A stretch of 64,000 nucleotides of DNA from Escherichia coli. Lineage in GTDB: Bacteria; Pseudomonadota; Gammaproteobacteria; Enterobacterales; Enterobacteriaceae. A model generated the notes under the pieces. It saw only the letters and a list, made by a program, of their open reading frames with translations. It searched no databases and was not told where the DNA came from. Location of the stretch: NCBI RefSeq assembly GCF_036507355.1, contig NZ_AP027877.1. One strand, given 5' to 3'. Each line of letters opens with the position of its first letter. The first letter of the stretch is position 1. Both the position numbers and the translations under genes were made by a program. Shown here one piece after another: positions 44,755-50,220 of the stretch.

Positions 44755-45582
44755 TTAGCCGCCGAACTGGTCAGGATCGGGACCGAGACGCTTGCCCTGA
44801 TCGAGTTTTGCAATTTCGCCGAGTTCGTCTTTGTCGAGACGGAAATCCCAGACATCAAAGTTTTCGGCAATACGTGAAGGTGTGACCGATTTCGGGATCA
44901 CCACCAGGCCGCTATCCAGATGCCAGCGGATAACAATCTGCGCCGGGGTTTTGCCGTATTTATCTGCCAGATCGCGAATGACTTTCTGATCGAAAACGCC
45001 TTTCCCTCCTTGCGCTAATGGGCTCCAGGATTCGGTCTGGATTTTGTGTGTCGCGTTCCAGGCGTGTAGCTGGCGTTGTTGCATCAGCGGATGAAGTTCG
45101 ATCTGGTTTATCACAGGCGTCACGCCAGTTTCATCAATCAGGCGTTGCAGGTGATGGATCTGGAAGTTGCACACGCCGATGCTTTTGATTAATCCCTCTT
45201 TTTGCAATTCGATCATGCCTTTCCATGCTTCGACATAATGGTCGATAGCGGGAACGGGCCAGTGCATTAAGTAGAGGTCGATATAATCAAGCTGTAGTTT
45301 TTTCAGGCTGTCGAGCAGGGCTTCGCGGGGGCGCTTGTGGTCGTCGTTCCACAGCTTAGTGGTGATGAACAGTTCTTCTCTGTTGACTGAGGCATTTTTC
45401 AGGGCTTTGCCGACACCTTCTTCGTTCTTATAGGCCGCGGCGGTATCAATCGAGCGATAACCCACTTCTAACGCTTTTTGAATGGCGGTGATTACTTCCT
45501 CATTACTTGCTTGCCAGACGCCCAGTCCCAACTGGGGCATGACATTGCCATCCTGTAGCTTAATAACGGTTGGATTAGCCAT
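44755..45582 (-). CDS. dkgA: 2,5-diketo-D-gluconate reductase A (aldo-keto reductase)
   Basis: 275 aa AKR-family sequence. Confidence 0.92.
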   Translation of the reverse strand: MANPTVIKLQDGNVMPQLGLGVWQASNEEVITAIQKALEVGYRSIDTAAAYKNEEGVGKALKNASVNREELFITTKLWNDDHKRPREALLDSLKKLQLDYIDLYLMHWPVPAIDHYVEAWKGMIELQKEGLIKSIGVCNFQIHHLQRLIDETGVTPVINQIELHPLMQQRQLHAWNATHKIQTESWSPLAQGGKGVFDQKVIRDLADKYGKTPAQIVIRWHLDSGLVVIPKSVTPSRIAENFDVWDFRLDKDELGEIAKLDQGKRLGPDPDQFGG

Positions 45583-45686
45583 ACGTTCCTCCTTTATATG
45601 AACTCACCGGAGCAGGCTCCGGTGAGGTGTTGTGAACTTAAGTCTGGACGAAATGCCCGAAAACGAAAGTTTGAGGCGTAAAAAGC

Positions 45687-46850
45687 TTAGCGGGCGGCTT
45701 CGTATATACGGCGGCTGACATCCAGCGTAATGTCATGATTTTCGCCCAGTTGGGTCATGCCGTGCTCTTCCAGTTTTTTCAGCAAAGCCGGGATGGAGCT
45801 GCCGTCCAGACCGTAGTCGGAGAGGTGGGTCGGCACGCCTAATTGCTCAAAGAAATTGCGGGTTGCGGCAATCGCGGCGTCAATACGCTCATCGTCGGAA
45901 CCTTCAGTGATGTTCCAGACGCGTTCAGCATATTGCAGCAGCTTAGCGCGCTTGGTATCGCGTTTTTCATTCCACAGTGCAGGCAGGACGATAGCCAGTG
46001 TTTGCGCGTGATCCAGACCGTGCATCGCAGTCAGTTCGTGGCCCAGCATATGCGTTGCCCAGTCCTGCGGTACGCCAGCGCCAATCAAACCGTTCAGCGC
46101 CTGAGTCGCCGCCCACATGACGTTGGCGCGCACATCGTAGTTTTCTGGCTCTTTCAGGGCTTTCGGACCATCTTCGATCAGCGTCAGCAAAATGCCTTCT
46201 GCGAAACGGTCCTGAATTTTGGCATCAACCGGTTTGGTAACATACTGTTCCACGGTGTGTACAAAGGCGTCCACTACGCCGTTAGCCACCTGACGCGGCG
46301 GCAGGGTGTAGGTATAAACCGGATCGAGCACGGCAAATACGGGCTGAACATGGGCAGAATGGAACGCCTGCTTATCGCCTGTGGTTTTACGGGAGATCAC
46401 CGCACCGGCGTTGGATTCTGAACCGGTTGCTGGCAGCGTCAGCACACAGCCCATCGGGATGGCGCTTTTAATCTCTTTACCACCCGTTTGCAGAATGTGC
46501 CACGGATCGATATTTTCCGGATAGTTAGCCGCTGCGGCGATAAATTTGGTGCCGTCCAGTACAGAACCGCCGCCAACCGCCAGCAGGAAAGTCACTTTCT
46601 GTTCGCGAACCAGTTTCACGGCGTTCATCAGCGTTTCATAAGCCGGGTTTGGCTCAATACCGCCAAATTCCAGCACGTCCATGCCTTTCAGGGCATCCAG
46701 AACTTGATCGAGAACGCCGGTTTTTTTCACGCTGCCGCCACCGTAGGTAATCAATACGCGAGCATCGTGAGGAATTTGTTCGCGTAAACCAGCGATTGCG
46801 CCTTTACCAAACAGAATGCGGGTTGGGGTGTGCAGATTAAAGTTGTTCAT
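45687..46850 (-). CDS. yqhD: NADPH-dependent aldehyde reductase (iron-containing alcohol dehydrogenase family)
   Basis: ORF 45687..46874; start at ATG 46850 ([22 protein letters not shown]..., 387 aa). Confidence 0.92.
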
Positions 46851-46986
46851 TACTTGCTCCCTTTGCTGGGCCAATATGAGGGCAGAGAACGATCTGCCTG
46901 ATGTTTTTCATTGTGATCGCCAGCGCCCTGGCTCTCAATGCTCATTTCTGCCAATGTCTTGCCTATTTCTCCAGAGTGCTGGAGAA
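46851..46986. promoter_or_regulatory. Divergent yqhD / yqhC control region
   Basis: 136-bp gap between divergent AraC-type regulator and its target reductase operon. Confidence 0.5.
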
Positions 46987-47943
46987 ATGCTACAAAATTG
47001 CGCACAATCAAATTGCCGCATTATTCCTAAGAAATTACGCGATATGAAACGTGAAGAGATTTGCCGCTTGCTGGCGGATAAAGTTAATAAACTGAAAAAT
47101 AAAGAAAATAGTTTGTCAGAACTGTTGCCCGATGTGCGTTTGTTGTATGGCGAGACGCCTTTCGCACGTACACCGGTGATGTACGAGCCTGGCATCATAA
47201 TTCTCTTTTCCGGACATAAAATCGGTTATATCAATGAACGCGTGTTTCGTTATGATGCCAATGAATACCTGCTGCTGACGGTGCCGTTGCCGTTTGAGTG
47301 CGAAACCTATGCCACGTCAGAGGTGCCGCTGGCAGGGTTGCGTCTCAATGTCGATATTTTGCAGTTACAGGAACTGTTGATGGACATTGGCGAAGATGAG
47401 CATTTCCAGCCGTCGATGGCAGCCAGCGGGATTAACTCCGCCACGTTATCAGAAGAGATTTTATGCGCGGCGGAGCGGTTACTCGACGTGATGGAGCGAC
47501 CACTGGATGCGCGTATTCTCGGCAAACAGATCATCCGCGAAATTCTGTACTACGTGCTGACCGGACCTTGCGGCGGCGCGTTACTGGCGCTGGTCAGTCG
47601 CCAGACTCACTTCAGTCTGATTAGCCGCGTGCTGAAACGGATTGAGAATAAATACACCGAAAACCTGAGCGTCGAGCAACTGGCGGCAGAAGCCAATATG
47701 AGCGTATCGGCGTTCCACCATAATTTTAAGTCTGTCACCAGCACCTCGCCGTTGCAGTATTTGAAGAATTACCGTCTGCATAAGGCGCGGATGATGATCA
47801 TCCATGACGGCATGAAGGCCAGCGCAGCAGCGATGCGCGTCGGCTATGAAAGCGCATCGCAATTTAGCCGTGAGTTTAAACGTTACTTCGGTGTGACGCC
47901 GGGGGAAGATGCGGCAAGAATGCGGGCGATGCAGGGGAATTAA
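46987..47943 (+). CDS. yqhC: AraC-family transcriptional activator of yqhD-dkgA
   Basis: ORF 46816..47943; start at ATG 46987 (MLQNCAQSN..., 318 aa); C-terminal AraC HTH. Confidence 0.88.
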
Positions 47944-48781: not shown

Positions 48782-49969
48782 TTATACAATCCGCGCAAAA
48801 CCGGCGTCCAGATCGGCAATCAGATCGTCGACATCTTCCAGACCAATATGCAGGCGAATCAAGGTCCCGCTAAAATCGATCTCGCCTTGTGGGCGAATGG
48901 CGGCGATATGTTCTGGTTGATTTGCCAGGATCAACGATTCATACCCGCCCCACGAGTAGGCCATGCTGAATAAACTGAAGTTATCCAGATAGTTCGCCAG
49001 CTCTTCATCATTGAGTTTTTTCTTAAGCACAAAGGAAAATAGCCCGCTGCTGCCTGTAAAGTCTCGTTTCCAGAATTCGTGTCCTTTACTGCCTGGCAGG
49101 GCAGGGTGGTTAACTCGCGCAACTTGCGGATGTTCTGCCAGCCATTCGGCCACTTTCAGACTGCTTTCATGATGTTGACGCAAACGCACACCTAATGTGC
49201 GCAGGCCACGGCTGGTTATATAGGCGGTATCAGCATCGACCATTTGGCCCATCAGATAGGCATTTTCCCGTAGCTGCTCCCAGCAACGGGCATTGCACAC
49301 CGCAGTGCCAATCATCGCATCTGAATGCCCAACCAGATATTTGGTGGCGGCCTGAATAGAAACATCGATGCCAAAATCCAGCGCCTTAAACAGCACACCG
49401 GCTGCCCAGGTGTTGTCGATCATAATGATGGCATCCGGCACCACACTGCGCACGGCGGCAACAATCGCCGGAACGTCGTGGACTTCCATAGTGATGGAAC
49501 CCGGCGATTCCAGAAATACGATTTTAGTGTTTGGCTGCAGATGCTTAACGATATCGGCACCAATCAGCGGATCAAACCATGATGTCGTTACGCCCAGTTT
49601 GCTGAGGATTTTGCTACAGAAATCCTGACTCGGTTCATAGGCGGTGTTGGTCATCAACACATGATCGCCCTGTTCGACAAAAGCAAGAATCGAATTAGCA
49701 ACCGCTGCCGCCCCGCAGGGAAATAGCGCGCAGCCTGCGCCACCTTCCAGTTCACACATCGCTTGTTGTAAGGAAAAATGGGTTAACGTTCCGCGCCGTC
49801 CATAGAACAACTCGCCATTGGCGCGATTGCGCGTCGCGTGCTTTTTGGCTTCCATACTGTCAAATACCAGCGAAGAAGCGCGCTGAATCACGCTATTTAC
49901 CGCGCCGAGAGTGTATTTTTTGCTGCGTCCTGCATTCACCAGTTGAGTATCAAGCTTTTTGTCCGCCAT
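48782..49969 (-). CDS. metC: Cystathionine beta-lyase
   Basis: ORF 48782..50104; start at ATG 49969 ([25 protein letters not shown]..., 395 aa); PLP-dependent Cys/Met metabolism family. Confidence 0.93.
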
Positions 49970-50220
49970 GTCGGGATTCCTGTTTTTATACGTCTGGATG
50001 TCTAAACTAGCATGAATATTCGCGGGCGCATCCTGAAGAATTGGCATAAAGCAGAAAATTTTCGCAAATGGCGTGCTGGTGACTTTTTTACTGCGTAAAC
50101 GCAAGGAAAAGAAAGCAAAGGTACGGCAGTATGCAAATAGTAATGAGAACGACTATCAATTCGACGTCGTTTTGATATTATTATGCGCAGATTTTGTGAC
50201 TTGCGTCCTGGAGATACACA

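Follow-up and report, generated by a model that had tools for sequence, protein, structure and literature searches.

The shared control region of yqhC and yqhD-dkgA in Escherichia coli: candidate promoters, a putative YqhC operator and the probable start codon of yqhC

The DNA between the divergent genes yqhC and yqhD of Escherichia coli is very probably best explained as a control region that is shared by yqhC and yqhD-dkgA and activated by YqhC, with a predicted promoter for each side, a putative operator made of two direct repeats (DR1 and DR2) and a yqhC start codon at position 47044. All positions are those of the window, the whole stretch of 64,000 nucleotides that was analysed. We also lean, by a modest degree, towards a more specific joint reading of the comparative sequence data, in which the annotated yqhC start would be 19 codons too far upstream, the control region would comprise 193 nt (46851-47043), two back-to-back sigma-70 promoters with -35 elements 41 bp apart would be served by one AraC-like tandem operator with the core TTGCCTAWTYCT, and this layout would be an ancient one, common to AraC_N (PF06719) regulators that are 45-52% identical to YqhC and lie beside other oxidoreductase genes. 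If true, the joint reading would be a useful correction and no surprise to specialists. YqhC and the yqhD promoter (PyqhD) serve as an aldehyde biosensor and in the engineering of tolerance to furfural and aldehydes, where the behaviour of a construct depends on exactly which promoter, operator and start codon it carries. Published reporter and expression constructs have all been built on the start at 46987 (PMC6115493, PMC8262776). With the start corrected and the operator motif defined, regulons could also be predicted for the large and mostly uncharacterised AraC_N family.

The layout of the locus can be read directly from the letters. The yqhD start codon reads 'cat' on the plus strand at 46848-46850, the first base of the spacer is 46851, and a plus-strand ATG is present at 46987-46989; the original prediction had given the spacer as 46851-46986, which is correct to the base (136 nt from the yqhD ATG at 46850 on the minus strand to the annotated yqhC ATG at 46987). 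The annotation of K-12 MG1655 shows the same layout, with yqhC (b3010; 957 nt, 318 aa) and yqhD (b3011) 136 nt apart on opposite strands, dkgA (b3012) after yqhD and the cluster situated between yghB and yqhG. Of 5426 complete E. coli genomes, 5422 have a match to bases 46500-47400, in many cases at 100%. Both the Pfam domains and the K-12 annotation agree with the earlier description of an AraC-type activator gene that is divergent from the genes of two NADPH-dependent aldehyde reductases. YqhC was found to combine an N-terminal regulatory domain (AraC_N PF06719, E 1.5e-40, residues 47-197 of the 318-aa form) with a C-terminal double helix-turn-helix (PF12833 HTH_18, E 4.8e-23, residues 232-307, and PF00165 HTH_AraC in two stretches, within 219-307). 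NCBIfam holds no YqhC-specific model and hence no curated N-terminus, and Rfam gave no match within the spacer. The coordinates of the features considered in this study are listed in Table 1.

Table 1. Features of the yqhC / yqhD-dkgA control region and of the adjoining genes (window positions).
Feature	Position	Strand	Basis
Annotated yqhD-yqhC spacer, 136 nt	46851..46986	.	= K-12 3155219-3155354
yqhD, NADPH-dependent aldehyde reductase, Fe-ADH family, 387 aa	45687..46850	-	Pfam PF00465/PF25137; K-12 b3011
dkgA, aldo-keto reductase, 275 aa, 104 nt downstream of yqhD	44755..45582	-	Pfam PF00248; K-12 b3012
yqhC as annotated, AraC-family activator, 318 aa	46987..47943	+	Pfam AraC_N and HTH_18; K-12 b3010
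ATG, conserved (probable) yqhC start, 299-aa product MKREEIC...	47044..47046	+	ATG in 71/71 non-Escherichia loci
Candidate yqhC -35 hexamer TGGAGA	46980..46985	+	invariant in 71/71 loci
Candidate yqhC -10 hexamer CACAAT	47003..47008	+	CAnnnT in 71/71 loci
Predicted yqhD -35 hexamer TTGAGA	46933..46938	-	promoter scan; TTGAGR/C in 71/71 loci
Predicted yqhD -10 hexamer CACAAT	46910..46915	-	promoter scan; CACAAT in 70/71 loci
yqhD Shine-Dalgarno GGGAG, 6 nt before ATG	46857..46861	-	sequence reading; conserved alignment block
yqhD leader hairpin GGCAGA-ucguuc-UCUGCC, about +6 to +23 of predicted mRNA	46881..46898	-	-9.2 kcal/mol, z -2.3
DR1, putative promoter-proximal 17-bp half-site ATGCTCATTTCTGCCAA	46938..46954	+	direct repeat; near-invariant in 77 sequences
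DR2, putative consensus 17-bp half-site TTGCCTATTTCTCCAGA	46959..46975	+	core TTGCCTATTTCT at 46959-70
Perfect palindrome ATTTCTCCAG-agtg-CTGGAGAAAT, 24 bp, 10+4+10	46965..46988	.	overlaps DR2, candidate yqhC -35 and annotated ATG

Control of yqhD-dkgA by YqhC from this spacer is already known and well studied, and the region as originally described restates a characterised regulon and has little discovery value. The regulon of K-12 was reportedly described by Lee et al. 2010 (J Bacteriol 192:4205) and Turner et al. 2011 (J Ind Microbiol Biotechnol 38:431); the locus analysed here agrees with it in its genes, in the annotated spacer of 136 nt and in the 24-bp palindrome, and its DNA is identical or nearly identical to that of K-12 and of thousands of E. 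coli genomes. Purified YqhC gel-shifts a probe whose primers correspond to window 46851-47001, and constitutive yqhC mutants show higher expression of yqhD, dkgA and yqhC together with increased activity of the yqhC promoter (PMC8262776). A single peak, within the yqhC-yqhD spacer, was recorded by genomic SELEX of YqhC (PMC8249747), and the strongest YqhC peak in ChIP-exo also falls at this spacer (PMC8464067). A yqhD promoter fragment is aldehyde-inducible through YqhC and serves as an aldehyde biosensor (PMC6115493). The published YqhC binding and the aldehyde-inducible yqhD promoter bear out the assignment of the spacer as the control region of yqhC and yqhD-dkgA. According to the literature, YqhC with its AraC_N sensor binds the spacer and activates the sigma-70 promoter of yqhD-dkgA upon exposure to glyoxal, furfural, glycolaldehyde or glutaraldehyde; the inducers are aldehydes, and direct ligand binding by YqhC is described as unproven (PMC5297802). 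RegulonDB places GlaR among the regulators of yqhC, with its site unknown. The position of the yqhC promoter is given as unknown in PMC8262776, and no usable transcription start site (TSS) for yqhC or yqhD was found in the Cappable-seq or Kim 2012 supplements.

The mechanical ORF list over-extends yqhC, as had been remarked earlier: its entry (46816..47943, plus strand, 375 aa) begins at ATG 46816, spans the whole spacer and overlaps the start of yqhD. The yqhD ORF is over-extended as well, by 8 codons to TTG 46874 (45687-46874, minus strand), so that both over-long ORFs share 46816-46874. That the 375-aa ORF might be the real yqhC, leaving no free spacer, is next to inconceivable, although the frame is open in E. 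coli and versions of 355 or 375 aa exist in a few entries of the databases. Such a gene would overlap the start, the Shine-Dalgarno sequence and the promoter of yqhD; its 57 extra residues carry no domain (no Pfam match was obtained in the extension from 46816), the extension region has no codon periodicity, stops 0-16 codons upstream of the conserved ATG close the frame in most species, and both K-12 and RefSeq annotate 318 aa. A start at 46816, the finding that the original prediction had named as speaking against it, is thus unsupported and is excluded. Another mechanical over-extension in the same list concerns metC, which appears with 440 aa from a TTG (48782-50104, minus strand) versus 395 aa (1188 nt), starting MADKKLD, in K-12.

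A total of 80 Enterobacteriaceae loci from different species, with YqhC orthologues 78-98% identical, were collected for comparison. The two genes yqhD and yqhC are divergent in 79 of them, and the remaining locus is cut at a contig edge. A DkgA homologue was found in 79 related loci, and dkgA was measured directly downstream of yqhD in 76, with a spacing of usually 100-105 nt. The divergent yqhC / yqhD-dkgA arrangement is no chance juxtaposition. From these loci 77 distinct sequences were aligned, each beginning 30 nt within yqhD and ending 60 nt beyond codon 20 of yqhC. The conserved blocks of the alignment were GGGAG (46861..46857), 46892-46903, ATTGTG (46910-15), the nearly invariant stretch 46932-46987, TGCGCACAAT (46999-47008) and the ATG at 47044.

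The original prediction had let yqhC begin at 46987, which the reference annotation shares, whereas the comparative evidence favours ATG 47044. Among the 71 non-Escherichia loci an ATG is found at the position of 47044 in all 71 and at the position of 46987 in only four, and in 56 of them a stop codon interrupts the frame in the 19 codons that precede 47044, in several loci directly adjacent to it. Upstream of 47044 the three codon positions differ little in column entropy (1.19/1.19/1.34), and downstream of it a strong periodicity appears (0.51/0.48/1.18). Orthologues outside Escherichia are annotated in the databases with 299 aa, or with 305 aa in some Citrobacter. Even within Escherichia, one lineage (L005) has ATA at 46987-89 and TGA at 47014-16, the rest of the gene being 97% identical. 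The core of the putative operator described below is situated 85 nt before ATG 47044 in E. coli and 28 nt before ATG 46987; the distance of 85 nt falls within the range of 72-104 nt seen in six distant loci and again favours ATG 47044. None of the papers searched links yqhC with start-codon terms. We conclude that ATG 47044 is the ancestral start of yqhC and probably its main start too, and YqhC would accordingly comprise 299 aa rather than 318, with the control region probably extending over 46851-47043.

A candidate yqhC promoter was recognized inside the annotated reading frame. The hexamers TGGAGA and CAnnnT are separated by 17 nt in all 71 non-Escherichia loci; in the latter hexamer A2 and T6 are invariant and positions 3-5 vary (CACAAT, CACACT, CACTAT, CAAACT, CATTAT and others), a pattern of constraint that reads as that of a -10 hexamer and not of codons. 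With 8 of 12 matches to the consensus, the candidate promoter lies below the threshold of the promoter scan and is hence absent from its list. Seven bases downstream of the -10, G47015 is conserved in at least 90% amid variable neighbours, and the yqhC TSS is predicted at about 47015. The segment before ATG 47044 has 57 nt in 69 of the 71 loci, and the distance from G47015 to the ATG is fixed. Transcription from this promoter would start 28 nt downstream of the annotated ATG. The present reading differs from the K-12 annotation in that the yqhC start is moved to 47044 and the candidate promoter falls within annotated codons 1-8; because this candidate promoter lies inside these first annotated codons, the functional start is most likely ATG 47044 and the control region 46851-47043.

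We consider it possible, albeit doubtful, that the annotation is right for Escherichia, with yqhC translated from ATG 46987 (318 aa), its promoter inside 46900-46963 and the control region ending at 46986; the start would then have been shifted upstream in Escherichia relative to other enterobacteria. Reg-Seq mutagenised 46828-46988, an insert without the candidate yqhC -10, and recorded footprints that lower expression, located at 46943-63 under most conditions and in LB at 46900-17 and 46934-48 (PMC7567609). Footprints of yqhC-directed expression in an insert that ends at 46988 indicate additional promoter activity upstream of 46987, on plasmids; in a re-analysis, one of the peaks is assigned to the YqhC activator sites that are already annotated (bioRxiv 10.1101/2024.12.17.629042). 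In the absence of a known TSS, however, the zero point of Reg-Seq for yqhC was an arbitrary one, placed 44 bp before the annotated start (PMC7567609). A GFP fusion at ATG 46987, likewise with DNA up to 46988, was expressed from a plasmid (PMC8262776), and this ATG can therefore be used on plasmids. The frame is open in five of the six Escherichia sequences, and two candidate promoters, TTGTGA-17-CTCAAT (46911-39) and an extended -10 TGcCAATGT (46949-57), precede this ATG, but the A46953 on which the extended -10 depends is found in no more than about 30% of species.

The ribosome-binding sites speak on both sides of the same question. The Shine-Dalgarno sequence before 47044 is weak, having decayed, in all six Escherichia sequences (-1.3 kcal/mol versus a mean of -5.4 elsewhere), outside Escherichia a GGAG is situated about 8-9 nt upstream of the 47044 ATG, and just upstream of 46987 E. 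coli has a GGAG of -6.4 kcal/mol. Against the latter, this GGAG is merely 2 nt from AUG 46987, and both are paired inside a perfect 10-bp hairpin (-12.5 kcal/mol). Moreover, E. coli retains an intact copy of the conserved TGGAGA-17-CACAAT, from which transcription would begin downstream of ATG 46987, and lineage L005 has lost that ATG and acquired a stop. The starts at 47044 and 46987 are compatible with each other, and both isoforms could be made, the 318-aa form being the minor one in Escherichia.

On the other strand, the predicted yqhD promoter TTGAGA-17-CACAAT was detected by the promoter scan with 9 of 12 consensus matches, and its 17-nt spacer is kept in all 71 non-Escherichia loci. It agrees with the sigma-70 pattern of two hexamers separated by 16-18 nt and a -10 with A2 and T6, and its TSS is predicted at 46902-46904; the wording of PMC6115493 implies a mapped yqhD start a few bases upstream of this position. 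The element CTCAATGC, whose opposite strand in E. coli bears the -35 for the divergent gene, was also found in a distant locus (L083), 25 nt before the core motif and thus at the same distance as in E. coli.

The predicted yqhD mRNA contains a hairpin in its leader. At least four of the five outer stem positions are paired in the minimum-energy fold of 54 out of 59 distinct leaders, each folded separately by an approach that leans towards pairing, and compensatory double changes (GC to AU, CG to UA, AU to GC) occur across genera. RNAalifold on a MAFFT alignment of the yqhD leaders missed this 5' hairpin, the variable loops being misaligned. Many non-Escherichia genera have U5-8 after the hairpin, which is attenuator- or terminator-like. 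An intrinsic terminator or attenuator in the E. coli yqhD leader was considered and rejected, as the hairpin is followed there by CUCAUAUU, with no U run on the transcribed strand; the same hairpin DNA was flagged as terminator-like on the plus strand, where GATGTTTTTC follows. Further downstream, the yqhD-dkgA spacer has a match to Rfam RF02753 (ES173 sRNA) at 45621-45684 on the minus strand, with 99 bits against a gathering score of 90, which adjoins a stem-loop, CACCGGAGC-cug-CUCCGGUG, immediately upstream of the ribosome-binding site of dkgA.

DR1 and DR2 form a direct repeat with a 21-bp period and are identical at 11 of 17 positions, and DR1 shares base 46938 with the yqhD -35. Counted from the predicted yqhD TSS, DR1 occupies -35 to -51 and DR2 -56 to -72; counted from the predicted yqhC TSS, DR2 occupies -56 to -40 and the two together -40 to -77. 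To see past the invariance of the close relatives, representatives 45-57% identical to YqhC were selected and their contigs fetched. The core TTGCCTAWTYCT was found with 0-1 mismatch upstream of seven of nine regulators that are 45-52% identical to YqhC, always on the strand of the regulator; the chance expectation, from the degeneracy of the motif, is about 0.004 per locus. In six of these distant loci the core is situated 72-104 nt before the annotated start, and in L089 12 nt before it. Two core copies 21 bp apart are present in L086, and L088 keeps DR1 and DR2, then a gap of 9 nt after the core motif, TGGAGA and, 17 nt later, TAnnnT. Judged from this conservation, DR1 and DR2 together are the likely YqhC operator, two 17-bp direct repeats laid out like araI1-I2. 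The neighbours of the distant AraC_N regulators include a divergent Zn-ADH gene (L083), a divergent short-chain dehydrogenase gene (L089) and a co-directional Fe-ADH gene (L082), which suggests that the AraC_N type of sensor may be paired with carbonyl reductases family-wide.

Bound to DR1 and DR2, a YqhC dimer would occupy positions -35 to -72 of the yqhD promoter in the manner of AraC on araI1-I2. DR2 would be the consensus copy and DR1 the weaker one, which abuts the yqhD -35, and filling of this promoter-proximal half-site would recruit RNA polymerase to the yqhD promoter. The operator would end 4 bp before the back-to-back yqhC promoter TGGAGA-17-CACAAT with its start at about 47015, and a single dimer-sized operator would fill the 41 bp between the two back-to-back -35 elements. 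One operator beside both promoters would fit the activation of yqhD as well as the reported positive autoregulation of yqhC.

The proposed operator can be compared with that of AraC at araI1-araI2/pBAD. Both regulators belong to the same protein family, and both regulator genes are divergent from their target. In K-12 the sites araI1 and araI2 were verified to be 17-bp direct repeats 21 bp apart that adjoin the pBAD -35; the putative yqh half-sites have the same 17+4+17 layout, with the proximal one at the -35. DR2 shares 12 of 17 bases with araI1, a score that is reached by one in 10,000 of the 17-mers in the window. There are differences as well: the sensor of YqhC is AraC_N PF06719 and that of AraC an arabinose-binding cupin, and no distal looping site of the O2 type has been shown at yqh, unlike in the AraC system. 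The DR1 and DR2 half-sites point towards yqhC and away from the yqhD promoter, opposite to araI relative to pBAD, which is a poor fit.

SoxS, MarA and Rob share the double helix-turn-helix with YqhC (weak NCBIfam matches), but SoxS and MarA are monomeric and, unlike YqhC, lack a sensor domain. A marbox or SoxS-type site was sought with the consensus AYNGCACNNWNNRYYAAAY and was rejected, with no match at three or fewer mismatches in 46851-47043; across the whole window 127 matches were obtained versus 127.7 expected by chance. The likeness to a SoxS-type site lies in the YqhC site being asymmetric and adjoining the -35, and it is called 'SoxS-like' in the literature (PMC6115493, PMC5297802). 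The published description, with a palindrome and a 'SoxS-like site', differs from the present reading, in which two direct 17-bp half-sites would constitute the operator.

The 24-bp palindrome has been singled out in the literature together with the 'SoxS-like' site (PMC6115493), and it might be functional in itself. It could serve as a symmetric operator for a dimeric regulator, either YqhC or some other factor (GlaR or CRP, for example), or it could form a hairpin in the RNA by which translation of yqhC is throttled. The E. coli sequence is an inverted repeat of 10+4+10 with every base paired, its RNA fold of -12.5 kcal/mol buries the GGAG and the AU of the annotated AUG, and the GlaR regulation of yqhC listed in RegulonDB has no known site. 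We nevertheless regard a function of the palindrome itself as improbable, since all ten pairs are complementary in only 8 of the 77 sequences (the mode is 8 pairs), the outermost and two inner pairs being complementary in just 27-69%, and the right arm is invariant, so that no compensatory change is present. Each arm has an explanation of its own, the left one as the 3' part of the DR2 motif that is shared across the family and the right one as the invariant TGGAGA -35, and transcription from about 47015 would leave the hairpin out of the mRNA. We prefer to read the palindrome as the 3' part of DR2 overlapping the TGGAGA -35 region, and not as a selected symmetric site or RNA hairpin. On transcripts that start upstream it may act as a translational block.

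The position of the ChIP-exo interval fits the proposed operator poorly. The interval (K-12 v2 3153318-3153348, signal/noise 18.7) converts to window 46879-46909, with an offset that was verified on the sigma-54 site described below, and thus covers the start and the leader of yqhD, at a distance of about 45 bp from DR1 and DR2. A weak copy of the operator core, CTGCCTGATGTT, is present within the interval at 46894-46905. A third half-site at this place as the cause of the ChIP-exo position was set aside as doubtful, in view of the match of 8-9/12 and of the CTGCC part, which co-varies as an RNA stem.

Two minor observations were made within yqhC. An exact sigma-54 motif, GTGGCATAGGTTTCGCA, is present at 47299-47315 on the minus strand, antisense to yqhC and pointing towards yqhD. 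Bonocora et al. 2015 list it as the intragenic site IA25, at 438 bp upstream of yqhD. In E. coli E200086 (NZ_CM128605.1) the match to 46930-47110 is divided between two places, with the first part ending near 47053, which suggests an insertion or rearrangement inside yqhC.
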